The notes below the pieces were generated by a model. It saw only the letters and a list, made by a program, of their open reading frames with translations, ran no database searches and was not told the DNA's origin. Below are positions 7,450 to 63,880 of a stretch of 64,000 nucleotides of DNA, piece by piece. The translations under genes and the position numbers were made by a program. The stretch spans positions 8,727 to 72,726 of the forward strand of contig CAIRHC010000007.1 of the NCBI GenBank assembly GCA_903878275.1, written 5' to 3'. Source of the stretch: Candidatus Vogelbacteria bacterium (GTDB lineage Bacteria > Patescibacteriota > Minisyncoccia > Phycocordibacterales > XYD1-FULL-46-19). Position 1 is the first letter of the stretch; every line of letters begins with the position of its first letter.

Positions 7450-7484
7450 TCTTAAATTACGAAATTAGGTTTCCTATGCTTTTC

Positions 7485-7551
7485 TGTCATTCCCGCGTAG
7501 GCGGGAATCTAGGTTTTGTCGAGTTGGTCTAGATTCCCGGCGGGAATGACA
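7485..7551. repeat. GTCATTCCCGCG..GCGGGAAT palindromic repeat (dRS3/RPE-like)
   Basis: TGTCATTCCCGCGTAGGCGGGAATCTAG...CTAGATTCCCGGCGGGAATGACA; half copy at 63655. Confidence 0.75.
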
Positions 7552-12079: not shown

Positions 12080-12128
12080 TTATCTAGCGTAATCAATAAC
12101 GCGAGTTTCACGGATGATAGGGATTTTG
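12080..12128 (-). repeat. Duplicated 3' end of rny (att-like direct repeat)
   Basis: 44/49 nt identical to 13557-13605; still encodes IRETRVIDYAR-stop. Confidence 0.85.
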
Positions 12129-13556: not shown

Positions 13557-15086
13557 TTATCTCGCGTAATCAATGACGCGAGTTTCACGGATGACGGTGA
13601 TTTTGATTTCACCAGGGTATTTTAGTTCTTGTTCTATTCTCAAGGCGACATCTCGGGCTAGACGACGAGCTTCCATATCGGTCACTTGTTCTGGACTGAC
13701 GAAAACTCGAATCTCGCGTCCAGCTTGGATGGCATAAGTTTTTTCAATGCCAGGGAAAGAATTGGCGATATCCTCAAGCTCCTTCAATCGTTTTAGGTAA
13801 TTTTCAAGACTGTCACGACGAGCGCCAGGGCGAGAGCTGGAAATAGCATCGGCGACTTTCACGATAATCGACTCTAGCGTCTCAAATGGGTATTCTTCGT
13901 GGTGAGATTGCATCGCTTTGATGATATTTTCACTTGTTCCGAATTTTTCGAGAATACGGCGACCAATTTCAACGTGAGTGCCGGGAATTTCGTGATCAAC
14001 AGCTTTGCCGATATCGTGAAGCAAGCCACCAGCTTTGGCGGTTTGCGGGTCAGCCCCAAGCTCTTCGGCGAGCATTCCCGAGAGGTGAGCCACTTCGATT
14101 GAGTGTTGCAAGACGTTTTGACCATAACTCGAACGGAAATGGAGGCGACCAAGAATCAACAAAACTCGGGGGTCAAGGTTGAAAACGCCGGCTTCATAAG
14201 CGGCACGCTCACCTTTTTCTTTGATGGTCTTGGAGATTTCCTCTTTAGCTTTTTCGACAATCTCTTCAATTTTTGCTGGTTGAATACGACCGTCGGCAAT
14301 GAGGTTTTCCAGAGCGGTTTTAGCAATTTGGCGACGAACAGGGTCAAAAGACGATAAAACAATTGAGCCCGGAGTATCGTCAATTATTACCTCGACGCCC
14401 GTGGCTTTTTCAAAAGCGCGGATGTTGCGACCTTCTTTACCGATAATCTTACCCTTGATGTCGTCGGAAGTGATATCGACGGTGGTGGACATTACATCTG
14501 GTACGGTCGAGGTCGAAAGTCGTTGAATTACGGTCGAAATAATCTCTTTAGATTTTTGCTCTAAGCGGTCAGTGGCTTCCATCTCGAGTTTTTGAATTCG
14601 GACGGTGAGATCTTCTTCGTAATTTTTCTCAATAATCTTCATCATTTCACCTTTAGCCTCCTCGACAGACAGGCGAGAGACTTTTTGGAGCTCTTTTTCT
14701 TTTTCTTCTTCGATTTTTACAATTCGCTCTTTAATTTCACGAACACTTTCAATTTTTTTCTTGATCTCGTCAGCTTCTTTATCGATATCGACTTGGCGAC
14801 GATCCAAAAGCTCGTCTTTTTTGATCAGACGATCCTCTGTTTTTTTAAACTCTTTTTCTTTTTCATCTCCTTTTTCGCGAGCTTCTTGGATGATTTTTGA
14901 AGCTTCTTGTTCGGCTTCGCCGGTGGTATGCTGGGCTTTATCTTTGGCTTCTAACAGGATTTGTTTGACCTGCAACTCCATCGAACCTTTTTGGGCGGAC
15001 AAGAGGAGCCAGCGTAAAACATAGCCAATCGCCAAGCCTAAAACACCAGATGCTCCCATTAGGAGAAAGGCAATTTTTAAACTCAT
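13557..15086 (-). CDS. rny: Ribonuclease Y
   Basis: N-terminal TM, coiled coil, KH motif IIGKEGRNI, HD motif LLHDIGK, SSRPGARR. Confidence 0.96.
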   Translation of the reverse strand: MSLKIAFLLMGASGVLGLAIGYVLRWLLLSAQKGSMELQVKQILLEAKDKAQHTTGEAEQEASKIIQEAREKGDEKEKEFKKTEDRLIKKDELLDRRQVDIDKEADEIKKKIESVREIKERIVKIEEEKEKELQKVSRLSVEEAKGEMMKIIEKNYEEDLTVRIQKLEMEATDRLEQKSKEIISTVIQRLSTSTVPDVMSTTVDITSDDIKGKIIGKEGRNIRAFEKATGVEVIIDDTPGSIVLSSFDPVRRQIAKTALENLIADGRIQPAKIEEIVEKAKEEISKTIKEKGERAAYEAGVFNLDPRVLLILGRLHFRSSYGQNVLQHSIEVAHLSGMLAEELGADPQTAKAGGLLHDIGKAVDHEIPGTHVEIGRRILEKFGTSENIIKAMQSHHEEYPFETLESIIVKVADAISSSRPGARRDSLENYLKRLKELEDIANSFPGIEKTYAIQAGREIRVFVSPEQVTDMEARRLARDVALRIEQELKYPGEIKITVIRETRVIDYAR

Positions 15087-16753: not shown

Positions 16754-16846
16754 TGCAACCTCCTTTCTGGGGGATTTTGTGCTAAACCTTTAAAATTATG
16801 TCGAAAAAAAACAATAAAAGCAACCACTAAAACGAGGATTATTCCA

Positions 16847-16980
16847 TTTTTAAACCCTTGCGGAATTGTCGCCAGCATGGTTTTCGCCCTTTGTTTTTTT
16901 GTTGCTTTAGCAACAAGGGCGAAATGGCGACTTGGAGCAGAGGAAAAAGCCCCGCTGGGGCTTTTTCTGTGGTTTTAAAA
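16847..16980 (-). ncRNA. Multi-stem structured element, copy 1 (after tig)
   Basis: Homologous to 59478-59626 with compensatory changes. Confidence 0.7.
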
Positions 16981-16989
16981 TGGAATTAA

Positions 16990-18048
16990 TCAGAGTGACT
17001 CTAAGAACTCAAAAACTTTTTCATTAATAATCAGATTTCCCGCATAGGATTTCAGCCGTCTTTCGTCTACTGTCGGATATTGTTTTTTCAAATAATCAAC
17101 TTCACGTTCCAATTCTTCTTCTGGTGCTCCAATTTGTTCGGTGCGAGCAATTTCATTTAAAATCAGACTAACCTCTACTCGGTACTTAGCGTCTTTGTCC
17201 CAGCCGGTCATCAATTCATCGCGAGTTTTTTTGAGATGATTTAGATAATCGTCAAAATTCAAACCCATTTGACCGATCTGCCCTTCCATTTCTGCCATCA
17301 TTTTGTCTTTTTCGGCCTCAACCAAAATTTTCGGGATAATCATTTCCGATTTTTTGTTTATTTCATCGACAATTTTCAAGCGTTTTTTCTCTTTGGCGCG
17401 ATATTTTTTTTCTAAATCAAGATTTTCTTGAACCTTTGCTTTCAATTCGTCGAGAGTTTGAAATTGTCCGAGAGCCTTGGCAAAATCATCATTTAATTCA
17501 GGCAATTCGCCAGCCGGGGAAGGTTCGTGATCACATTTTTCACCTTCTTTGTGTTCGTGTTCGGCGTGACTATTTGTGGCACGTTGTTTGCGTAAATTTT
17601 CCAAAACATCACTTATCTCTTGATCGGTAATTTTAATTTCTTCGGCTTTTTCGCTATTCACCTCTTTGGCGATAGTTTTGTAGTCAGCCAAAGTTATCTT
17701 TGGCATCGTGGCGGTCTTTATTTTAAAACCGAGTGGATTATCTTTGGCTAGTTTGGTAATCGAGACTTCTGGTCGCCCAATAGCGTCGATTTTATGGTCA
17801 CTTAAAATATCGGGATAAATTTGACCGATGGCAATTTCACCCATTTCCAGCAATATTTTTTCTTCGCCGACTTTTTCCACCAAAACTTTTTCTGGAATAT
17901 GACCTTTGCGAAAGCCGTCAATTTGGGCATTTTCACCTAAATTCTTAATCGCTTTGGCTCGAAAAGTCGCAAAATCTTCGCTATTTAATTCGCCGACAAT
18001 TTCAATTTCGGCATCTCCAATTTTATTTATTTTAATATCTGGCTTCAT
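16990..18048 (-). CDS. tig: Trigger factor (short form, FKBP domain largely absent)
   Basis: IDGFRKGHIP ribosome-binding motif, LPELNDDFAK; 352 aa. Confidence 0.92.
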   Translation of the reverse strand: MKPDIKINKIGDAEIEIVGELNSEDFATFRAKAIKNLGENAQIDGFRKGHIPEKVLVEKVGEEKILLEMGEIAIGQIYPDILSDHKIDAIGRPEVSITKLAKDNPLGFKIKTATMPKITLADYKTIAKEVNSEKAEEIKITDQEISDVLENLRKQRATNSHAEHEHKEGEKCDHEPSPAGELPELNDDFAKALGQFQTLDELKAKVQENLDLEKKYRAKEKKRLKIVDEINKKSEMIIPKILVEAEKDKMMAEMEGQIGQMGLNFDDYLNHLKKTRDELMTGWDKDAKYRVEVSLILNEIARTEQIGAPEEELEREVDYLKKQYPTVDERRLKSYAGNLIINEKVFEFLESL

Positions 18049-30935: not shown

Positions 30936-31005
30936 AATAGGGGGAGGTCGAACCTCACCTCAAGGTGCCAAATAGGGGGAGGTCGAACCTCACCTCAAGG
31001 TGCCA
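30936..31005 (+). repeat. 35-bp tandem repeat x2 containing the GAGGTCGAACCTC palindrome
   Basis: AATAGGGGGAGGTCGAACCTCACCTCAAGGTGCCA twice; core recurs at ~31728 and ~32865. Confidence 0.88.
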
Positions 31006-31035
31006 AATGTGTTGTAATATAATTTGTTAACGAGG

Positions 31036-31203
31036 CGGGAAAAATGTGTTGTAATTTGCTGACGATAGGATAATTAAAAAAGAAAAAACCACCCCAGGAA
31101 TTTCGCCTAGCAAAATTCCTGGGGTGGTTTAGTTTTCCGGTTTTTGTTTTTTCTCTTTTTTTTACAAAAGACTTCGTTTGGAAATAATGTTTGTGATATA
31201 ATC
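31036..31203 (+). repeat. Cassette-boundary repeat, copy 1
   Basis: AAATGTGTTGTAATTT..GAAAAAACCACCCCAGGAATTT..AAATTCCTGGGGTGGTTT followed by a promoter-like block. Confidence 0.85.
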
Positions 31204-31211
31204 TTCTCAAG

Positions 31212-31601
31212 ATGATAAAAAGATTTTTGGAGTGGCTGGAGTTAAAAGTAAAACTTAATGATTTAGAAAGCGAGCCACCAATCGTTCATGAAAGAGAGCT
31301 TTGGTGGATTAGTTTTGGTGAAAATATTGGTTCGGAAATTGACGGGAAAAGTCAATTGTTTTCTCGTCCCGGTTTAATTCTCAAGAAACTATCCCGTAGT
31401 TTCTATCTTGTTGCTCCGACGACATCTCAAATAAAAACCGGTTCTTGGTATTCAACGATAAAACACAAGGGTAAAGAGATGTCTGTTTGTTTACATCAGG
31501 TCAGAACGGTTGATTGTCGACGTTTATCTAGCTTAATGGGGCAAGTTGACGAAAAAGATTTTACCGTAATCAAAGAGTCATTTTTCAAATTATATCGGTA
31601 A
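31212..31601 (+). CDS. PemK/MazF family toxin with no protein antitoxin
   Basis: ELWWISFGENIGSEIDGK..FSRPGLILKK..APTTS..QVRTVD. Confidence 0.85.
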   Translation: MIKRFLEWLELKVKLNDLESEPPIVHERELWWISFGENIGSEIDGKSQLFSRPGLILKKLSRSFYLVAPTTSQIKTGSWYSTIKHKGKEMSVCLHQVRTVDCRRLSSLMGQVDEKDFTVIKESFFKLYR

Positions 31602-31620
31602 AGTTACTTGAAAAAAATAT

Positions 31621-31665
31621 TCCTCACCTTTTTATGGGTGAGGCCGTGGCTAAATGCCGAATGTA
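31621..31665 (-). ncRNA. Putative small RNA convergent on mazF
   Basis: Minus-strand TTGACT-16-TATACT at 31698-31671; GGC-ATTTA-GCC then CCTCACC/GGTGAGG hairpin. Confidence 0.55.
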
Positions 31666-31745
31666 TTTTTAGTATAGACCTTATTTAAAAAAAGTCAAAT
31701 TTTACTGTTTTAACTCCTCCGAAAGTCGAGGTCGAACCTCATATT

Positions 31746-31837
31746 CGGGAAAAATGTGTTGTAATTTGTCGATGGTAGGCTAATCAAAAAAGAAAAAACC
31801 ACCCAAGGAATTTCGCTAGACGAAATTCCTTGGGTGG
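31746..31837 (+). repeat. Cassette-boundary repeat, copy 2
   Basis: Same motif with a compensatory C-G to A-T change (CCACCCAAGG/CCTTGGGTGG). Confidence 0.85.
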
Positions 31838-31920
31838 AGTTGTTTTTTGGTCAGTTTTATCAACTTTATAAACTTACAGTATTTTGACAAACTTTATAAA
31901 GTTTGCTAATATCAGTTTTA

Positions 31921-32844
31921 ATGACGATTAAAGAAAAATTACAAATTATCAAACAAACTACCGGTTTAACTCAAACCAAACTGGCAGAGCGCTTAGGCGT
32001 GTCTTTTGTCACCTTTAATAGTTGGTGGACGGGGAAAACCTTGCCTCGTTTGAAAAAGCAGGTTCTTATTGGCGAGTTGTTTCTAACCTTAACTGGTCAG
32101 AAAATTATCCCGACCGAACAACTGCTCGCGAAGAAGCAAGCTCTACAAAAAAAATCAGCTGAACACAAGAGTGTTATTTCTGAAATATTAAATAATCCAG
32201 ATCTTCGAGATAGTTTCCTGTTAAAACTTACTTACAATAGTAATAAAATTGAAGGGAGCACTTTGTCTGAATCAGAGACTGCCGCGATTCTTTTTGATAA
32301 CACCGCTTTACCAGACAAAAGTTTAATCGAACAATTAGAAGCCAAAAATCACCAGACTGCTCTTAATTATCTTTTTGATTATATCGCAAAAAATGATGAG
32401 TTGACTGAAAAATTGGTGTTAAAACTTCACAGTATTTTAATGAATGGCATTCGTGATGATGCTGGGGTTTATCGTAACCATGGCGTCAGAATTCTTGGGG
32501 TTGATTTGCCGACCGCTAATTATTTGAAAGTCCCCGAATTGATTCCCGGTATAATTAGGAGGGCGAATAGTAAATCTAAAGATGTCGTGGCTTTGTCGGC
32601 AGAAATTCATAGTCGGTTTGAACAAATCCACCCTTTTTCTGACGGTAACGGTCGGATCGGACGGATTTTGATGACCGCGATGTTGCTTCGGGCAAACATG
32701 GCGCCAGCGATAGTTAAACAGGAAGACAAACAGTTTTATTATGCTTGTCTTTATGGGGCTCAAGTCAAAGAAAACTATAACCAGTTAGAAGATTTTTTGT
32801 GTGATGCCATAACAAACGGTTTTAAAGTCTTGGAGCGAGATTAA
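31921..32844 (+). CDS. Fic family protein with N-terminal XRE-type HTH
   Basis: GLTQTKLAERLGVS; SNKIEGS; HPFSDGNGRIGR; palindrome CAAACTTTATAAAGTTTG in the promoter spacer. Confidence 0.92.
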   Translation: MTIKEKLQIIKQTTGLTQTKLAERLGVSFVTFNSWWTGKTLPRLKKQVLIGELFLTLTGQKIIPTEQLLAKKQALQKKSAEHKSVISEILNNPDLRDSFLLKLTYNSNKIEGSTLSESETAAILFDNTALPDKSLIEQLEAKNHQTALNYLFDYIAKNDELTEKLVLKLHSILMNGIRDDAGVYRNHGVRILGVDLPTANYLKVPELIPGIIRRANSKSKDVVALSAEIHSRFEQIHPFSDGNGRIGRILMTAMLLRANMAPAIVKQEDKQFYYACLYGAQVKENYNQLEDFLCDAITNGFKVLERD

Positions 32845-32890
32845 ACCGAAAGTCGCCGAAAGTCGAGGTCGAACCTCACCTCAAGGTGCC

Positions 32891-33055
32891 AAATGTGTTG
32901 TAATTTCCTGACGGTAGGATAATCAAAAACGAAAAAACCACCCCAGGAATTTCGCTTAGCGAAATTCCTGGGGTGGTTTTAGTCCTCTGGTTTTTATAAT
33001 ATTTTTTCTTTTTTTACAGGAGACTTCGTTTGGAAATAATGTTTGTGCTATAATC
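32891..33055 (+). repeat. Cassette-boundary repeat, copy 3
   Basis: Same hairpin plus GACTTCGTTTGGAAATAATGTTTGTG.TATAATC block shared with copy 1. Confidence 0.85.
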
Positions 33056-33061
33056 AGAAAA

Positions 33062-33241
33062 ATGAAGAAAGAAAATAACTATGCCTTTATTGATAGTCAG
33101 AATTTGAATTTGGCAATTAGATATTTAGGGTGGGAATTGGATTTTGCTAAGTTTCGAATTTATCTAAAAGATTGTTTTGGCGTAGATAAAGCCTATCTTT
33201 TTATCGGTTTTGTAAACGACAATCAACCGCTTTATACTTAA
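33062..33241 (+). pseudogene. Truncated NYN ribonuclease (internal deletion)
   Basis: MKKENNYAFIDSQNL..KFRIYLKD..AYLFIG matches the N-terminus of 12953..13477; stops after 59 aa. Confidence 0.85.
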
Positions 33242-33297
33242 GAAAAAGAGGCATAACCTAGGGACGAAACCCTTCGGGCAGCCTCTTTATCGTGATA
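33241..33297 (-). ncRNA. Putative NYN-associated small RNA, copy 2
   Basis: Minus-strand TTGACA-16-TATTAT at 33330-33303; same fold as the 13461 copy. Confidence 0.6.
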
Positions 33298-33349
33298 GTT
33301 TAATAATAGCAAATATGGCTGATGTGTCAACGTAAGCTTAGTTAAAACA

Positions 33350-33398
33350 TCGAAACCCCACATTGCTGTGGGGTTTCTCGGAGGCCGAAGCCATAATA
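33350..33398 (-). ncRNA. Orphan MazF-type small RNA
   Basis: GGC-TTCG-GCC, TCCGAGAAACCCC hairpin, homologous to the 21644 copy; TTGCTT-16-TATTAT promoter; no mazF ORF beside it. Confidence 0.6.
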
Positions 33399-33509
33399 CT
33401 TATTATAATATACCACTTATTTTTTTAAGCAAGGGCGGGGGCGGTTTAGTTTCCGGTTTTTCTGATCTTTTCTAGCCACATTTCTTGTTTTATGCTAAAA
33501 TTACAGTAT

Positions 33510-33920
33510 ATGGTTATCGATGTGGAAAAAAGAGATGAAATCATTGAATACTGGCGGGAAGGAGCGGGAGAAGCGCTTGAAAACGCTGAATATTTAATGG
33601 AGAAGAAAAGTTTTTCCTATGCTTTATTTTTTGCTCATTTAGCGACAGAAAAAATTCTTAAATCTCTGGTGATTAAGAAAACCAACGACCATGCTCCTCG
33701 GACTCATGATTTACTCTATTTGGTCGGGTTGTCGGGGGTTGATTTATCAAAAAGCCAAGAGAATCTGTTGTTAGAAATTGGTAAATTCAATATTGAAGGT
33801 CGTTATCCAGAAGAAAAACAAGAAGCTTCAAAAAAAATTAACCAAGCAATGGTAGAAAATTATCTAATTAAAATTAAAGAATTATATTTATGGTTATCGT
33901 CGGAGCAGAAAGAAAAATAA
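33510..33920 (+). CDS. HEPN domain protein
   Basis: ALFFAHLATEKILKS..RTHDLLYL..IEGRYP. Confidence 0.88.
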   Translation: MVIDVEKRDEIIEYWREGAGEALENAEYLMEKKSFSYALFFAHLATEKILKSLVIKKTNDHAPRTHDLLYLVGLSGVDLSKSQENLLLEIGKFNIEGRYPEEKQEASKKINQAMVENYLIKIKELYLWLSSEQKEK

Positions 33921-34231
33921 TTAGTAGCGAGGAAATTAAAAAAATCCTGGCTCTTTTTAAAGAAAAGTTGGTGGCAGAAAAAGTGCCTTTTGCGAGCATT
34001 TATCTTTTTGGTTCTTATGCGACAGGCGAGGCTGACCGTGATAGTGATATTGATATTGCGGTGGTGATTTCGCCAAAGGCGAAAATTGACGAGGAGCTCG
34101 TTGACCATTGGCGTTGGTTAGCTAAAGAGATAAATGTTAAGACTGAAGTGCATATTATCAAAACTGAAGATTTTGATAATCGCTATCTATCTTTACCCGC
34201 TTATATTAAAAAAGACGGGATTGTTGTTTAG
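33890..34231 (+). CDS. Minimal nucleotidyltransferase (MNT), HEPN-MNT pair
   Basis: YLFGSYATG..SDIDIAV. Confidence 0.88.
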   Translation: MVIVGAERKIISSEEIKKILALFKEKLVAEKVPFASIYLFGSYATGEADRDSDIDIAVVISPKAKIDEELVDHWRWLAKEINVKTEVHIIKTEDFDNRYLSLPAYIKKDGIVV

Positions 34232-34232
34232 G

Positions 34233-34340
34233 GTAATATAATTTGCTGACGAGAAAATAATCAAAAACGAAAAAACCACCCCAGGAATTTCGCTTAGCGA
34301 AATTCCTGGGGTGGTTTTAGATTTCTGGTTTTTCTGATTT
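34233..34340 (+). repeat. Cassette-boundary repeat, copy 4
   Basis: AATTTGCTGACG..TAATCAAAAACGAAAAAACCACCCCAGGAATTTCGCTTAGCGAAATTCCTGGGGTGGTTTT. Confidence 0.85.
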
Positions 34341-34386
34341 TTTTCTTTCTCTTTTTCTGTTGTTCTGTTAAAATTAAATAAGTTTT

Positions 34387-41281: not shown

Positions 41282-41351
41282 GGCTCAACTTTTTGCTTTT
41301 AAAAACCACAAAAAATTTCCCCCGAGCGACTTTGTCGCTCGGGGGATGATT

Positions 41352-45229: not shown

Positions 45230-45230
45230 A

Positions 45231-45521
45231 TTTACCCGGTTAAATAAGATTTGATACGACGCTTGATAAACATTCGACCGTGGTATGTTTTAAAATATTT
45301 TTCTCGGTGGGTAGCATCATCTCTATTTAAACATGATTCATAGTAGACAAGCAATAGGGGACGGCGATCTTTTGTAGATTCGACTAACCCTCGACAGTGT
45401 TTATCAAATCTTAATTTTAAATCTTTGGTGTAACCAGTGTAGAAATTGTGATCTTTTTGAGATAGTAAAATATAAGTATAAAACATTGATATTTAGATTT
45501 AAAATTATTTAACTGGGTAAA
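45231..45521 (-). mobile_element. Inverted-repeat-flanked GIY-YIG element, copy 1
   Basis: Termini TTTACCC(A/G)GTTAAATA / TATTTAAC(C/T)GGGTAAA. Confidence 0.7.
45232..45486 (-). CDS. GIY-YIG nuclease family protein
   Basis: YTYIL..FYTGYT.DL..R..H..STK..P..LVYYE..A..RE.Y.K. Confidence 0.9.
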   Translation of the reverse strand: MFYTYILLSQKDHNFYTGYTKDLKLRFDKHCRGLVESTKDRRPLLLVYYESCLNRDDATHREKYFKTYHGRMFIKRRIKSYLTG

Positions 45522-45557: not shown

Positions 45558-47327
45558 ATGTCAATAAAAAAATGGGCGTTAAAAAAGCCAATTAGTAAGA
45601 AAATTGCGGAAAATTTAAAAAATTACCCAGAATTAACGCAAAAATTACTCTTTTATCGGGGGATTAAAACAATTGAAGAAGCGGAAATTTATCTTAATCC
45701 AAATTTTGAGCGAGATGTGCTCGATCCATTTTTATTTGCCGATATGGACAAAGCGGTGGATCGTATTATCGAAGCGATTCATAAAAAAGAAAAAATAATT
45801 ATTTTTGGTGATTATGATGCAGATGGCGTGCCGGGGGCGGCGATTTTGGCATCGTTTTTTGAACGGATTGGGTATTCTGATTTTGATGTTTATATTCCCG
45901 ATCGTCACCTTGAAGCCTATGGTTTGAGCGAAAAAAGTGTCAAACAATTTATTGCGGATAAAATTGATTTGGTGATTACTGTCGATTGTGGGGTGACCAA
46001 TAACGAAGACATTGCTTTGGCGAAAGAAAATGGTTTGGATGTGATTGTGACTGATCACCATCTGACAGGCGAGACTTTGCCAGATGCTGTGGCGATTGTT
46101 GATGCGAAAAGAATCGATGACAAATATCCGTTTAAATCTTTGGCAGGTTCTGGCGTCGCTTTTAAGTTGGTCTGTGCGATTTTGACTCGAGATCGTTTTA
46201 ATGTGCCGGTCGGCTGGGAGAAGTGGCTTCTTGATTTGGTGGCGATTGCGACGGTGTCGGATATGGTGCCCTTGGTTGGCGAGAATCGCGTGCTGACTTA
46301 TTTTGGTCTGAAAGTGCTTCGACAGACGAGGCGACTTGGAATGATTGCTTTACTTCACGAATTGAAAATTAAACCAGAAAATGTAATGGAAGATGATATT
46401 GGTTTCATGATTGGACCGCGGCTAAATTCGGCGGGGCGAATGTCTCACGCCTCGCAAGCTTATTTTTTACTGCAAACAAAAGACGGTATTGAAGCGGTGA
46501 CGATCGCTAAGCATTTGGAAGAAAAAAATAAAGAGCGGAAAGATTCAGTGGATGTCATTTTGCGAGGAGCGGAAGAAAAATTGTTGGGTAAAAATTTGCC
46601 ACCGGTTATTGTGGTCGGGAGTGTCGATTGGAGCTTGGGAGTTTTAGGTTTGACCAGTAGTCGTTTGGTGGAAAAATATAATCGCCCAGTTTTTTTGTGG
46701 GGTAAAAATGGTAACGGCGAAATAAAAGGTTCTTGTCGGTCTGATGGTACGGTTAATTTGGTTGAATTGATGAAAGAAGCCGGCGGGGAAGATTATTTTA
46801 TAAATTTTGGTGGGCACATCATGGCGGGTGGTTTTTCGATTACCGAAGATAAAGTTGGTGAGTTGGCAGAGAGAATAAATAAGGCGTATGAAAAAATAGA
46901 GAAAAAAGACGTAGCCGTGTCTATCGAGGTTGATGAGCAATTAAGTTTGGACGAGGTGACCTGGGATAATTATTATCAAGTGGAAAAACTAGGACCATTT
47001 GGAATAGAAAATACGAAACCGGTTTTTTTGCTGGCGGGGGTTGATATTTTTTCAGCCAAAACTTTTGGTAATGGCGGAATTCATTTGGAATTGGCTTTTA
47101 AGAACAGTAAAGGCAAAGTCATTCCGGCAATTGGTTTTTTTGTTTGCCCGCCAAGTTTGGTTGGCGAAAATTTTGATGGTCAAAATGGGCATCATTTTCC
47201 CGAAGTTAATCTGACCGCTGGTCAGAAAGTAGATATTTTAGTGAATTTGGAAAAATCAACATTTAAGAATTTCCCCGAACTCCGGATGAGGATTGTCGAC
47301 ATTAAAAAAGTTCACCCAGTTAAATAA
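45558..47327 (+). CDS. recJ: ssDNA exonuclease RecJ
   Basis: GDYDADG, TVDCG, TDHH, GPRLNSAGR, GSCRS, GGH. Confidence 0.95.
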   Translation: MSIKKWALKKPISKKIAENLKNYPELTQKLLFYRGIKTIEEAEIYLNPNFERDVLDPFLFADMDKAVDRIIEAIHKKEKIIIFGDYDADGVPGAAILASFFERIGYSDFDVYIPDRHLEAYGLSEKSVKQFIADKIDLVITVDCGVTNNEDIALAKENGLDVIVTDHHLTGETLPDAVAIVDAKRIDDKYPFKSLAGSGVAFKLVCAILTRDRFNVPVGWEKWLLDLVAIATVSDMVPLVGENRVLTYFGLKVLRQTRRLGMIALLHELKIKPENVMEDDIGFMIGPRLNSAGRMSHASQAYFLLQTKDGIEAVTIAKHLEEKNKERKDSVDVILRGAEEKLLGKNLPPVIVVGSVDWSLGVLGLTSSRLVEKYNRPVFLWGKNGNGEIKGSCRSDGTVNLVELMKEAGGEDYFINFGGHIMAGGFSITEDKVGELAERINKAYEKIEKKDVAVSIEVDEQLSLDEVTWDNYYQVEKLGPFGIENTKPVFLLAGVDIFSAKTFGNGGIHLELAFKNSKGKVIPAIGFFVCPPSLVGENFDGQNGHHFPEVNLTAGQKVDILVNLEKSTFKNFPELRMRIVDIKKVHPVK

Positions 47328-47602
47328 TTTTAAATCTAAATGACAATGTTCTATACCTACGTTCTATTATCAAAGAAAGATAACCAATTCTATACTGGTT
47401 ACACCAAAGATTTAAAATTAAGATTTGATAAGCACAATAAAGGTTTAGTAGAATCCACAAAAAAATCTTCGTCCACTATTGCTTGTGTACTATGAGTCGT
47501 GCTTAAATAGAGATGATGCTACTCATCGTGAGAAGTATTTAAAGACATATCACGGTCGAATGTTTATCAAACGTCGTATCAAATCTTATTTAACCGGGTA
47601 AA
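47311..47602 (+). mobile_element. Inverted-repeat-flanked GIY-YIG element, copy 2; nuclease 47346-47601 frameshifted
   Basis: Closely similar to copy 1; one extra A in the A7 run at 47459-47465. Confidence 0.8.
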
Positions 47603-48048
47603 TGGAAAAAATTTATTTAAATACTGATGGCGGGTCACGAGGTAATCCCGGTCCGGCGGGAGCGGGAGCTTTTATTTATAATGAAAAAGGGGAGATGGTG
47701 CGTAAGGCGCACTTGTTTCTCGGGGTGATGACCAACAACGAAGCGGAGTATCAGGCGGTGATTCTTGGTTTGGAGACTTTGAAAAAAGTTTTTGGCAAAG
47801 AAAAAATAAAAGATTTGGACGTGACCATCAGGTTGGATAGCGAACTGGTTTGTCGGCAACTAAAAAACGAATATCAAATTAAAGAAGAAAAACTAATTCC
47901 ACTTTTTATTAAAGTCCACAATTTGCAAGTGTCAGAATTTAAACATTTAAATTTTGAGGCGATTCCGCGTGAGAAAAATTTTGAAGCGGATAAACTGGCG
48001 AACGAAGCGATGGATTTGGGTAGTAGTCAGCCGGCCGGTCTCTTTTAA
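47602..48048 (+). CDS. rnhA: Ribonuclease HI family
   Basis: TDGGSRGNPG, TNNEAEY, DSELV, ADKLAN. Confidence 0.93.
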   Translation: MEKIYLNTDGGSRGNPGPAGAGAFIYNEKGEMVRKAHLFLGVMTNNEAEYQAVILGLETLKKVFGKEKIKDLDVTIRLDSELVCRQLKNEYQIKEEKLIPLFIKVHNLQVSEFKHLNFEAIPREKNFEADKLANEAMDLGSSQPAGLF

Positions 48049-55646: not shown

Positions 55647-55668
55647 TATCAAACACCGGGTGTTGATA
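55647..55668. repeat. REP-like palindrome (RAYT-associated), copy 1
   Basis: TATCAAACACCGGGTGTTGATA. Confidence 0.8.
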
Positions 55669-55773
55669 GTCTCTGGTGTCGGACATTTTTGTGCTGTGTT
55701 ATCCACCTATTTACCTTGCCAACTTGCCTTGGGGGGGGGTATTATTAGGGGATTAGAAGTTAATCATAAAAAT

Positions 55774-56589
55774 ATGGAAGGAGATAAAAATTACAAAAAC
55801 ACAAGAGAAGACTACGCTGAAATAGAAAAATTTGGTCCAGAGTTCGAAGAAAAGATTCAAGAAGGGTCTTTGGAAAAAAAAGATCTTGTTGCTAAAATAA
55901 TTGGTGATATTGAAAATATTGTTAAAGAAACAGGTGAAGACTTGTCACTTGAAAATGGCACGAAGAGGGAAATAGAGGAACTTTCTTTGATTTTGTCGAA
56001 GATGGAGTTGCTTGAAATCATAGATCCAGAAAATTTAAGTAATTTGAAAGAAAAGATTACCTCTTTTTATAACTTACGGCTGGAATACTTAACTTTAGGT
56101 AAATTCGATAAAACATTAGAAGAGAGAGATGGTATCTATTCAAGAATGCCACCTCAATTTCGAGCACCGATATCGAAAGGGACAGAATTAAGACACCGCT
56201 TGTTTTCGGAGAGTAATGATTTTGTCAAAGAATTAAGAGGAGCTCTTCTCTTAGAATTAAAAGCGGACGATGTTGAAAATGACGAAGATTTTTCTGGGAA
56301 ATTGGAAATGTTTGAGGAAAATATGAAGTTGTTAAAATCTTTAAAGGAGGGGGATTTGATAAAAATAACACATAATAAGGGAGAGAAGTTAAAAAAAGAA
56401 AAGTCTGATGTGGTTGTGAGAACTGTTCGTTTCTGTGAATTTAAACCAGCTTTTCGCGGTTCTTTTCAGGGAGATCTAGTGTCTCCAGAGGTATTTTTTA
56501 GCGAAGATATTAAAGGGAAAAAACCATTTTTTTATACCGATAGTGTTAGCCTTGGGCAACTTTTGCGAGTCGAGATAGCCACGGAATAA
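55774..56589 (+). CDS. Hypothetical acidic protein
   Basis: Long E/K-rich ORF between two REP copies. Confidence 0.7.
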   Translation: MEGDKNYKNTREDYAEIEKFGPEFEEKIQEGSLEKKDLVAKIIGDIENIVKETGEDLSLENGTKREIEELSLILSKMELLEIIDPENLSNLKEKITSFYNLRLEYLTLGKFDKTLEERDGIYSRMPPQFRAPISKGTELRHRLFSESNDFVKELRGALLLELKADDVENDEDFSGKLEMFEENMKLLKSLKEGDLIKITHNKGEKLKKEKSDVVVRTVRFCEFKPAFRGSFQGDLVSPEVFFSEDIKGKKPFFYTDSVSLGQLLRVEIATE

Positions 56590-56623
56590 CGGAATAATTG
56601 CGACTAGGGGTTTTTATGTCTTA

Positions 56624-56645
56624 TGTCAAACACCGGGCGTTGATA
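56624..56645. repeat. REP-like palindrome, copy 2
   Basis: TGTCAAACACCGGGCGTTGATA. Confidence 0.75.
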
Positions 56646-56672
56646 ATTACCCGGGTATTTGGTAGTTTTGGG

Positions 56673-57350
56673 TTATTCAAAATCTAATTCGTCATCTTTA
56701 TCTTTAATTTCTTTGGCACCACTTTCCTCAACCCATTTTTGGTAATCATCACCATTTTCTTTTATTTGCTCTAAAATAATACTTGAATCAAGTAACCGAT
56801 CCCAGCGATTTTGACCGACAAAATCACCAAAGCTTGACCAGCGGTATTTAGTTTCTTTTCCCTGTTGACCAATTTCCATGGGGTTTAGATGAATATAAGC
56901 CGAAGTACAAAGTAATTGTTCGTTATCTTTAACGTGAACAGCACGAAATGGTCCTTGAAATAAGTGTCCAGATTGTTGGTATTTGGCATTAAAATATTTA
57001 GTATAACCGTTAAGAACTTTTTGCATATAAATTGAAACTCCATTGTCTACTGCCGACTGAACTAAAATATGAAAATGATTAGGCATTAAAGAAAAGGCGA
57101 TAATTTTTACTATTTGATTGTCGGTAATTTCTTTTGTCTCTTTATCGCTAATCCCGAAATCATTAGTTTGAAGAAAATTTTTTGTATGAAATCCAATATT
57201 ATTAATACTTTTTAGCGACTGGAAATAGAGAAGATAAAACATAAACCTTGCTCGATCTTTATCGTCTTTAAAAATTTCACACTTTAAATTCCCGCGATTA
57301 ACTAGGTGAAAATATTCTCCAGCGACAAACGGAACTTGACGGTAGGGCAT
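56673..57350 (-). CDS. REP-associated tyrosine transposase (RAYT, Y1 HUH)
   Basis: YFHLVNRG, LMPNHFHIL (HUH), GHLFQGPF, YIHLNP, YRWSS. Confidence 0.9.
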   Translation of the reverse strand: MPYRQVPFVAGEYFHLVNRGNLKCEIFKDDKDRARFMFYLLYFQSLKSINNIGFHTKNFLQTNDFGISDKETKEITDNQIVKIIAFSLMPNHFHILVQSAVDNGVSIYMQKVLNGYTKYFNAKYQQSGHLFQGPFRAVHVKDNEQLLCTSAYIHLNPMEIGQQGKETKYRWSSFGDFVGQNRWDRLLDSSIILEQIKENGDDYQKWVEESGAKEIKDKDDELDFE

Positions 57351-57377
57351 AGCGTTATTATACCACATAAATCTTAT

Positions 57378-57399
57378 TATCAAACACCGGGTGTTGATA
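57378..57399. repeat. REP-like palindrome, copy 3
   Basis: TATCAAACACCGGGTGTTGATA. Confidence 0.8.
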
Positions 57400-59099: not shown

Positions 59100-59459
59100 A
59101 TGGCCACTACCACTAAAACAAAAAAGACTGTCAAAAAAGAAGACGCCAAAGAAACTTCTCGTTTACGCATCAAAGTTTCGGCTTACGAGCACAAACTTTT
59201 AGATGCTAGTATCAAGCAAATTGTTGATACGGCGATGCGTCACGATGCCAAGCTTCTTGGTCCGATTCCTTTGCCAACAGAAATTAAGAAATATACGGTC
59301 AATCGTAGCTCTTTCATTGATAAAAACTCTCGCGAGCAATTTGAAATGAGAGTACACAAGCGATTGATTGATATTGTCAGTCCTTCTCCAAAAATTATCG
59401 AGAGCCTAACAAATCTAAATTTGCCTAGTGGGGTGAATATTGATGTGAAGATGCTGTAG
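59100..59459 (+). CDS. rpsJ: 30S ribosomal protein S10
   Basis: GPIPLPT, SREQFEMRVHKRLIDI. Confidence 0.97.
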   Translation: MATTTKTKKTVKKEDAKETSRLRIKVSAYEHKLLDASIKQIVDTAMRHDAKLLGPIPLPTEIKKYTVNRSSFIDKNSREQFEMRVHKRLIDIVSPSPKIIESLTNLNLPSGVNIDVKML

Positions 59460-59477
59460 AGAGGCTCAACCTTTTAT

Positions 59478-59626
59478 TTTTTGAAACCACAGAAAACCCC
59501 TCCCGCGAGGGGTTTTCCTCTGCTTCGTATCTGGCCGTTCCGCCTTTGTTGCACTAAAAGTGCAACACGACCAAAGGTCAAAAGGCGGAAACCATGCCGG
59601 CCAGCTCTCCGCAAGGGTTTCAAAAA
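59478..59626 (+). ncRNA. Multi-stem structured element, copy 2 (after rpsJ)
   Basis: Homologous to 16847-16980 with compensatory changes. Confidence 0.7.
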
Positions 59627-59746
59627 GCAAAAGGTCTCGCCTTGATGGCAAGAATGAACCTTTTTTGATAATTCGCAGATTTACCCGCCTTAATTTTGCT
59701 TTGCAAAATTAAGGCGGGGGTTTTGGGTCGAGATTTTTTACTTTAT

Positions 59747-60244
59747 TTAACTATTCTGTTTTTTTTTAAATAAAGAAGAAATATTTTTATTGAAGCATAA
59801 AATTAGAACAGCGAGACTCCACCCGATAGGTATTAGCGTGGGGATTAATATAAGAAGAATAGCGGTTATCGATGGTTTCATAAGAAAAATACCAAATGGG
59901 CCAATTAAGAATATTATTACGGTAAATAAACCACCTCCCGAAGGTATCAGGGAAAAAATTCCATAAACAATGGCAAGAGTTCTAGCCCATTTTTTAGTTT
60001 TTAAAAGACCAAAACTAACAAATAATGGGATTATGATGGCGACGATTGCTATTATAAAAATAAATACTCCCATTTTTAGGATTATTTCATAAAAAGTCAT
60101 GGGAATCGGTGCTGGGACAATGGAACCACCCGGTGGCGACATTAACTCCCTAATTGAGGTAAAAAGGTACCATGAGGAAAAGACCGGAAGAATAAAAAAA
60201 AGAAGCGAAAGAATTTTTAAACCAAGAGGTTTAGAATCATTCAT
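59747..60244 (-). CDS. Hypothetical membrane protein
   Basis: Four to five TM segments, GLLKTKKWAR. Confidence 0.7.
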   Translation of the reverse strand: MNDSKPLGLKILSLLFFILPVFSSWYLFTSIRELMSPPGGSIVPAPIPMTFYEIILKMGVFIFIIAIVAIIIPLFVSFGLLKTKKWARTLAIVYGIFSLIPSGGGLFTVIIFLIGPFGIFLMKPSITAILLILIPTLIPIGWSLAVLILCFNKNISSLFKKKQNS

Positions 60245-60367
60245 ATTTTTATGATTAAAATAATAATTTATCTAAACTTATTGTAACATAATCGGCATAT
60301 TTCTTTGCTATTATCTTTGCCAAGACGTATAATTAAGGTATTAAAAATTATTAATAATAAATATCTT

Positions 60368-60799
60368 ATGGATCAATTTATAAAAACTCTTGATGAATAT
60401 TTTGGCAAGAAGGCACCCCAACTGCCAGTCAAAGCCAAAGAAATTATTGTAAAGGTTAGCCCATACTTGGCGATTTTGGGGATTGTTTTTATGGTTATGA
60501 GTATTGTCCCGTTGATGATGCTAGTGTTTGGTTTGGGGGCGGTCAGTGTTTTGGCTGGTTATGTTCCGATGCAAAATGCCTATATTTCTATCGCGGTAAT
60601 GCTGGCAACCGGAATTATCTGTGCGATGGCAATTCCTGGTTTATTTAAAAGAACAAAATATGCTTGGAATCTAATGTTTTATTCCCAGCTTGTTTCGGCG
60701 GTTGGTAGTCTTTTGTCTCTAAATATCATCAGCTTGATTATTGGTTTGGCTATCGGATTCTATATTCTTTTCCAGGTTAAATCTTATTACGTGAATTAA
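60368..60799 (+). CDS. Conserved membrane protein
   Basis: KAPQLP..KEIIVK..PGLF..W..FY..YILFQVKSYY. Confidence 0.75.
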   Translation: MDQFIKTLDEYFGKKAPQLPVKAKEIIVKVSPYLAILGIVFMVMSIVPLMMLVFGLGAVSVLAGYVPMQNAYISIAVMLATGIICAMAIPGLFKRTKYAWNLMFYSQLVSAVGSLLSLNIISLIIGLAIGFYILFQVKSYYVN

Positions 60800-60945
60800 G
60801 TGAAATTTTAAGGGGAAACTCCCGCCGGCGACTTGTCGCCGGCGGGAGTTTGATTTCTGCCAATTCTAAGCCAACCTCAATTTGACTTTTGGCTGTTATC
60901 TGATAATATACTTTGGAGCTCGGGTCGAGCTATTTTTATCTTTTT

Positions 60946-63482: not shown

Positions 63483-63654
63483 TAAATTAAAAAGCAAAAA
63501 GCAAATATCAAAAATTATAAACAAAAAATCCCCAGAGCTTGTCGAAGGGGATTTTTTGTTTAAACTATTTTTTTGCCACCTACTCAATCGTGCGACCGCA
63601 CGATTGAGTAGGTGCAGATTTTATAAAAATATTTACCATAATGCATATTCCGGC

Positions 63655-63682
63655 CTAGATTCCCGCCTGCGCGGGAATGACA
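63655..63682. repeat. Half copy of the dRS3/RPE-like repeat
   Basis: CTAGATTCCCGCCTGCGCGGGAATGACA. Confidence 0.7.
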
Positions 63683-63880
63683 AAAAGAGTTTTTGTTATA
63701 AATCCCTTTGTTTGAGCTATTTTAGAGTTTTTGGATTCACGGTCGGTGGTCTTGACTAAATATTAAAACCGTGATACAGTCAAAGCAGATACCCTTGTCT
63801 GGGTTTTTGGTCGGTTGCGGGACGCATTGGGCGTTTCCGTGACTTTTGTCAAAAAATGAGAGAAAAAAAGGAGAAGTACA

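Follow-up and report, generated by a model that had tools for sequence, protein, structure and literature searches.

ERIC, Correia and other MITEs carry a long terminal stem and are placed after stop codons. Integron attC sites likewise follow stop codons; they fold from the bottom strand, with a variable terminal structure and AAC/GTT R boxes, and accompany cassettes. The non-autonomous, PATE-like derivatives of IS200/IS605 are a further case. REP, BIME and REPIN repeats, with their RAYT proteins, are extragenic, lie mostly downstream of genes, are lineage-specific and fold as single-stranded DNA, or ssDNA (PMC3733652, PMC6006769); IS200/IS605 prefers the lagging-strand template (PMC6006769). 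NTS/SRM ssDNA hairpin repeats of 20-50 nt flank the genes of Ssn GIY-YIG nucleases (PMC11893778). The element family described here bears on how REP-like repeats spread and on the reason for their closeness to stop codons.

Extent and fold of the window copies

The window, i.e., the whole stretch of 64,000 nt analysed here, was predicted to carry a multi-stem element of ~140 nt after tig and after rpsJ. The element is indeed present behind both genes, and all the stems originally listed were found in both copies, but its true length is ~185 nt (~182-195; 16821-17002 on the minus strand and 59457-59651 on the plus strand), because the closing stem runs on for ~20 more variable base pairs. Its parts and the related features are listed below, with coordinates and strands of copies in the sense of the upstream gene.

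16821..17002, minus strand: full copy after tig (model score 177.5 bits)
16971..16997, minus strand: P1 5' arm of the tig copy, pairing with the 3' arm 16831-16856
16943..16967, minus strand: P2 hairpin of the tig copy (A-tract, T-tract and, at 16953-16958, the conserved CCAGCG tip)
16856..16942, minus strand: long arm of the tig copy (P3-P6 plus the ACCATGC bulge)
16937-16942 with 16856-16861, minus strand: P3 of the tig copy
16925-16931 with 16868-16874, minus strand: P4 of the tig copy
16915-16924 with 16882-16891, minus strand: P5 of the tig copy
16901-16914, minus strand: variable P6 hairpin of the tig copy
16875-16881, minus strand: conserved ACCATGC bulge of the tig copy
59457..59651, plus strand: full copy after rpsJ (model score 158.1 bits)
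59463-59488, plus strand: 5' arm of the rpsJ copy
59492-59517, plus strand: P2 of the rpsJ copy
59591-59597, plus strand: ACCATGC of the rpsJ copy
59616-59641, plus strand: 3' arm of the rpsJ copy
59642-59649, plus strand: tail of the rpsJ copy
59672..59724, plus strand: 3' remnant candidate (P3 3' strand and an inserted hairpin, 59684-59718), recognised by eye, without a profile score
41282..41345, plus strand: 5' fragment, directly behind the stop codon 41279-41281
59747..60799, no strand assigned: two ORFs between the rpsJ copy and rplC, outside the element

In the sense of the gene, the closing stem P1 (20-27 bp, with a TC/TC loop close to its base) is followed by a short linker, the P2 hairpin with its A- and T-tracts and CCAGCG tip, and a long arm that runs through P3, a 3x3 loop, P4, an ACC(N)NGC bulge, P5 and the variable P6, the whole being a branched fold with a three-way junction. 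The tig stop codon (16990-16992) falls within the 5' arm of its copy, and the rpsJ copy begins at the rpsJ stop codon (59457-59459). Both copies out-fold shuffled sequence on either strand, with folding z-scores, for tig and rpsJ respectively, of -7.5 and -7.9 as RNA and of -8.0 and -9.1 as DNA (0 of 200 shuffles as good in each case). P2 presents a GC-rich hairpin and T-tract pattern after the stop codon; it looks like a bidirectional intrinsic terminator in the tig copy, where only the antisense strand scores as a terminator, and has no such score in the rpsJ copy. Downstream genes start only 5-60 nt beyond some copies, and P2 is therefore not a full terminator there.

A model was built from 23 copies, and 84 distinct copies were aligned to it. 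Cells that pair amount to 92.8% in these copies versus 69.9% in shuffles, a figure that is not a probability because related sequences were aligned by fitting them to the model, and 48 of the 51 pairs change on both sides. With more homologs, covariation grew stronger rather than weaker, and the outer arms vary between copies of one genome while remaining paired. The swapped base pairs had been taken as a sign of selection on structure: the covariation itself is confirmed, but arm-to-arm copying at imperfect palindromes can yield paired changes without selection, and the swapping of whole element alleles as blocks is a second caveat on this reading. A better sign of selection is the conservation of unpaired motifs across phyla. 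CCAGCG and ACCATGC recur in four phyla; the CCAGCG tip of P2 is kept in 62 of the 84 copies, and the 2x2 and 3x3 loops and the bulge are likewise retained (72, 67 and 74-78 of 84). ACCATGC, although conserved, is not the invariant sequence first supposed, since it reads so in only 30 of 84 copies (ACCCTGC in 22, ACCGGC in 15). Nor is TCCGCAAGG a GNRA loop, as had been proposed: its GCAAGG pairs with CTCTGC in the P3 junction helix, where double changes are found (one pair is UA in 47 copies and CG in 36), and it is unchanged in just 26 of 84 copies. The view that the element goes beyond a terminator is supported. A kissing or pseudoknot contact of the P2 tip with the bulge or the P6 loop is not supported, as by eye it fits one subfamily and not the others.

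The 5' fragment suspected near 41298 proved real (41282-41321, E 3.9e-5 with the 5'-half profile). It is interrupted in P2 by an unrelated hairpin (41319-41345), and three family genomes have a copy at this site, upstream of tpi. The segment at 59672..59724 is a probable 3' remnant of an older, longer variant of the element, and resembles, by eye, the junction hairpin of two other copies of this genome (C2 and C5). Interruption of an operon by inserted genes, predicted for both copies, holds for rpsJ, where the two ORFs before rplC had no Pfam or NCBIfam match, but not for tig, whose copy is separated from clpP only by a ~400-nt spacer with an 80-codon ORF that matches nothing.

The window holds further repeats. 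Long perfect palindromes of several kinds stand behind stop codons (59684-59718, 60816-60851 and 41319-41345), and two palindromes are NTS/SRM-like (7481-7513 and 63654-63686). At 30944-34353, upstream of pilB, four ~115-nt repeats with a long perfect hairpin, plus REP-like units, surround a PemK/MazF-like gene and a Fic gene. Another repeat, of 49 nt, is a near-duplicate of the RNase Y gene 3' end, from which it lies 1.5 kb away (12080-12128 and 13557-13605), and two small GIY-YIG genes (45230-45521 and 47311-47603), one of them broken, bracket recJ in inverted orientation and are 84-88% alike.

Range, placement and turnover of the family

Rather than two copies, the genome (769 kb) holds 11 full ones, among which the secY copy shares 89.7% identity over 136 nt with that of tig, together with two 5' fragments (one at 41282) and one head-to-head fusion. 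The latter joins two 5' ends via P2 between convergent genes (C10:88625-88728) into a perfect bidirectional hairpin, and suggests an inversion through recombination between copies. Strong full-length copies (best E <= 1e-24) occur in 21 of 43 family genomes, patchily by genus, and matches at E 0.001 in 27 of 43; several near-complete family genomes are without any copy, and close relatives have from 0 to 15 copies per genome. In the class, 28 of 151 genomes have a match, mostly to a 155-165-nt form, with 17 candidates scored per genome. A pattern scan gave at least 118 loci; among those listed, the P2 stem is present in 60, and scoring 100 of them with the model produced 50 matches. Besides other Patescibacteria, this shorter form is represented in Omnitrophota, Planctomycetia and Aminicenantes. 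Five non-CPR genomes have 1-4 pattern matches each, for 0 in the reversed control. Viral contigs gave 0 matches to the strict pattern, and in the part of the viral data searched with two looser patterns the P2 stem was found in 0 of 208 loci. Rfam scans of the window, the rpsJ copy and 20 plus 7 other loci hit no known family, returning only tRNAs or sub-threshold chance matches, and no description of the family was found in the literature covered, largely open-access papers and the main texts of REP surveys. The element is a real, uncatalogued family.

Two related arrangements were observed. Clostridia records (L173, L165, L207, L210, L217, L220, L251 and L262) have a different, looser fold with the same CCAGCG and ACCATGC, which there pair with each other; this element lies among small unknown genes, often behind stops, and had no Rfam match in five records scanned. 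In one Omnitrophota genome (L541, L546, L549 and L551), an extra layer of pairing, with TC/TC loops, encloses the core; one copy is behind rpoD, with an IS110 gene 430 nt downstream of it, and a 1.7-kb segment lies between two copies that are inverted relative to each other.

Placement is strongly constrained. A same-strand stop, counted if its reading frame has at least 60 codons or is open, lies upstream of 78 of the 84 copies, and in 64 of the 84 the stop is 26-30 nt from the P1 anchor, i.e., a few bases before the element starts, a placement expected by chance for ~2% of intergenic positions and orientations. TAG makes up 42 of these 78 stops, versus 136 of 548 genome-wide in this genome. 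At tig and some other copies, the 5' arm overlaps the last codons and provides the stop. Readthrough of the stop codon into the element was rejected, the spacing covering all three frames. Pfam-identified upstream genes are rnc, hisS, rplL, rodA, secY, rpoD, ftsZ, rpsR, smc, rplE, gyrB, argS and efp; nrd, rpmB and pilin-region genes are candidate additions from our own reading of the sequence, outside the Pfam identifications. In distant genomes, a same-strand stop precedes just 22 of 36 copies among the matches listed. In this genome, 11 of the 13 sites lie on the leading strand; the other two are those of the lagging-strand genes tig and hisS, where both copies are oriented as the gene. After rpsJ, 30 genomes have the element (5), a plain hairpin (18, by eye), neither (6) or an unreadable sequence (1), the plain hairpins that alternate with the element being terminator-like. 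Behind 105 of the 545 genes of this genome, a perfect hairpin of 9 bp or more begins no further than 40 nt from the stop.

By sequence similarity, copies group by genome or genus, not by gene. Of 68 copies, 60 have their nearest neighbour at another gene, and identity is 63% at the same gene across genera, 62% between unrelated sites and 76% within one genome. Two metagenome contigs, L527 and L530, have 3,034 nt identical save 15 differences, every one inside the element, and each allele has self-matching arms; as these strain variants differ inside the element only, the element was rewritten as a block. A third contig of this locus, L534, has half of each allele and could be an assembly chimera. 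Outside the element, the three contigs display sharp mosaic tracts, 10-30% divergent, beside identical stretches, as expected from frequent recombination. In a sister species, arms and core at hisS both differ from those of this genome's copy, and an element lies between lepB and pth, where this genome has none. That copy follows a TAA in a promoter region rather than a gene end; this single empty/filled pair shows no target duplication, with a 3' side that fails to align, and the difference may be a gain or a loss. Metagenome contigs at a depth of 2-4 yielded other copies and no empty site. Duplication of the stop codon as a target duplication was rejected, since the 5' stop and the 3' TRR triplets often differ. 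At 9 loci a full copy is followed by extra 3' halves, 5'-only copies that retain P2 persist behind stops, and foreign hairpins are lodged within P6, P2 and at the junction.

Folding strand, mechanism and alternative explanations

The loop sequences suggest that the element likely folds as ssDNA on the template strand of the gene, the folding strand of the tig copy thus likely being the opposite (plus) one. C-GNA-G triloops number 18 on the antisense versus 1 on the sense strand in 78 arms, and 11 versus 0 in 59 distant copies among the matches listed. GNA triloops closed by a C-G pair are described as very stable in DNA (PMC3201870, PMC13037366). On the antisense strand, the internal loops are GA/GA and GNA/GNA, the 3x3 loop reading GNA in 74 and 78 of 84 copies. 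GNA/GNA internal loops are a DNA motif. RNA tetraloops are without bias (GNRA: 11 sense, 10 antisense), and the sense strand has no GNRA or UNCG excess. The 18:1 triloop bias therefore favours an ssDNA fold over an RNA or a ribozyme. Against an antisense fold, sense G-T cells outnumber A-C cells at paired columns (134 versus 80), two columns supplying 77 of the G-T cells. The strand predicted to fold is the leading-strand template at 11 of the 13 sites of this genome.

Slightly favoured over all other explanations combined is a non-autonomous ssDNA-folding repeat that occupies the terminator slot and is exchanged between sites as a block. Established are the multi-copy state, the covariation of the fold, position and orientation, filled and empty sites, block replacement, 3' remnants and lodged hairpins. 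Among the possibilities raised by the original prediction, an ssDNA-folded mobile element fits best, while a novel ncRNA or ribozyme has gained no positive support. The element is likely spread by a putative structure-recognising ssDNA nuclease, to which the conserved P2 tip, the ACC(N)NGC bulge and the GNA/GNA loops would provide a binding site. Nicking and recombination of the folded element would put new copies in the place of older ones or of plain hairpins, and arm-to-arm template switching would keep the outer stem matched. The P2 hairpin and T-tract may act as a partial terminator, which is the proposed reason for the host tolerating the element in that slot, and the fixed orientation would reflect transcription-linked targeting or survival.

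Within this preferred reading, the leading guess for the enzyme, a tentative one, is a resident RAYT-like Y1 nuclease; one such gene, a weak candidate, is present in the window.

56673..57383, minus strand: RAYT-like Y1 HUH nuclease gene, adjoining no copy, weak candidate partner
55649-55665, 56626-56642 and 57380-57396: short repeats flanking this gene

This genome has five RAYT-like genes, each with its own short flanking repeats. In 5 of 78 arms, P6 contains a repeat of this kind, and one near-identical to that of the gene above lies within the P6 arm of a relative's copy (L055). Among family genomes, which as kin are not independent, Y1 genes occur in 19 of the 21 that bear the element and in 12 of the 22 others; they also occur in 5 of 5 element-bearing non-CPR genomes, for 6 of 14 controls; one genome (G005, 99% complete, 9 model matches) is without a Y1 match. 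No element half lies within 1.5 kb of 34 Y1 loci, 54 Y1 loci gave two isolated motif matches only, no recurring mobility gene was seen among downstream ORFs read by eye, and neither an autonomous copy nor an adjacent enzyme was found. Other partners were rejected: a reverse transcriptase (PF00078) and DUF559, with no match in this genome (100% complete by markers); IS110, with no match in this genome and near just 1 of 4 copies of the Omnitrophota genome; and small GIY-YIG genes (6 matches) and three tyrosine recombinases, none of which adjoins a copy. The RAYT-like gene of the window lies between fusA and tuf beside an unknown 309-codon ORF, three copies of a short palindrome bounding this region (55649-57396).

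A rival explanation is a cis-acting RNA at mRNA 3' ends, i.e., a terminator with a stem for stabilisation or RNase III-type processing; operon junctions would retain it, and gene conversion between sites, with no dedicated enzyme, would homogenise it. The sense orientation is fixed and follows the gene in both lagging-strand cases, the slot is shared with plain terminator-like hairpins after rpsJ, 14 genes have copies in more than one genus, G-T is in excess on the sense strand, and 5'-only copies with P2 persist behind stops. This explanation is nevertheless unlikely: the loop signature is of the DNA type and on the opposite strand, GNRA or UNCG excess is lacking on the sense strand, the remainder would go untranscribed if P2 terminates, many complete relatives do without the element, and stacked remnants occur, as do both filled and empty sites. 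An independently transcribed small RNA or ribozyme, from either strand, is most unlikely, its positions and copy number being variable, its loops being triloops rather than RNA tetraloops, Rfam giving no match, and the two window copies having no recurring promoter at a fixed distance. This holds despite the strong covariation, an antisense strand that ends with P2 and a T-tract like an sRNA plus terminator, and an antisense RNA folding energy that is lower in 22 of 23 copies, a difference confounded by base composition.

The element may resemble plasmid single-strand origins, and could be an ssDNA signal that the host uses for priming or recombination on the template strand at gene ends, its spread being a side effect. 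The branched ssDNA-type fold with two unpaired motifs conserved across phyla, the location mostly on the leading-strand template and the head-to-head fusion of 5' ends between convergent genes, which shows recombination through P2, agree with such a role; it is quite unlikely given 0 to 15 copies among close relatives, sites that differ between sister species and no consistent link with replication genes. Near-neutral palindrome dynamics, in which terminator hairpins expand, become nested and are made perfect through template switching while ectopic recombination spreads them with no dedicated protein, is very unlikely. Template switching at quasipalindromes is a known process (PMC7202029), outer arms are sometimes perfect complements and in 5 of 115 copies (null, 15 of 1500) extend over the stop codon and coding bases, layers are nested in one Omnitrophota genome, and foreign hairpins are lodged in P2, P6 and the junction. 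Template switching erases mismatches, however, and here both internal loops (2x2 and 3x3) persist along with the bulge, as do CCAGCG and ACCATGC in four phyla.

Beyond the preferred reading of a block-exchanged ssDNA repeat, it is possible, though doubtful, that the family is a new, transcription-targeted class of mobile DNA: a branched ssDNA module that would enter or overwrite the terminator slot directly behind a stop codon on the template strand, swap cores and matched arm pairs with other copies while folded, and offer nuclease repeats and cargo genes a landing pad in the reduced genomes of at least four phyla. If so, the enzyme behind it would amount to a new tool for structure-guided ssDNA insertion; a host nuclease that inserts the element strand-specifically behind stops would likewise mean a new targeting rule and a possible tool. 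Compact Patescibacteria genomes keep and renew up to 15 copies of 160-190 nt at the ends of core genes, including rpsJ, secY, rpoD, gyrB and smc. The family is directly testable, because it offers a defined substrate, conserved motifs, a predicted strand, allelic replacements and an empty site.

Comparison with known systems

Retrons and their msDNA are set apart by the absence of a reverse transcriptase (PF00078) from this genome. With integron attC sites, the element shares its location behind stops, a bottom-strand fold and a variable terminal structure; unlike them, it has no AAC/GTT boxes, ends in GCTC and TCGC, follows core genes rather than cassettes and has a three-way junction. The NTS/SRM of Ssn nucleases are similar as ssDNA hairpin repeats (PMC11893778), and this genome has small GIY-YIG genes, but the SRM motif was found in 0 of 142 elements, with five matches elsewhere in this genome. 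ERIC, Correia and other MITEs are alike in length, long terminal stem and site behind stops; the arms of the element, in contrast, provide no constant terminal inverted repeats or transposase site, and the one empty/filled pair shows no TA or other target duplication.

With the IS200/IS605 derivatives, the element has in common a strand-specific ssDNA structure, no target duplication seen, and a 5' junction with TAA/TAG that is present at some non-coding sites too. Its spacing from the stop varies by several bases, unlike theirs, no parent IS with the same ends was found as a split or gene-bearing copy in the family loci and 13 metagenome loci, and its folding strand, if correctly predicted, is mostly the leading-strand template, contrary to the IS200/IS605 preference. 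Like REP, BIME and REPIN repeats, the element is extragenic, mostly downstream of genes, lineage-specific and folded as ssDNA, RAYT-like genes are present in most of the same genomes, and RAYT-flanking repeats are sometimes within it. However, it is a three-way branched structure of 185 nt, where REPs are palindromes of 20-40 nt or dimers of these; its outer arms vary freely, its orientation at stop codons is fixed, and it never flanks a RAYT gene (34 Y1 loci, 1.5 kb). Its flanks contain no constant tag of the REP type (GTAG/GTGG or CGTC), GTAG occurring only where a TAG stop follows G. On the best reading, the element works in the manner of REPIN and PATE repeats but does not show the features that define them.
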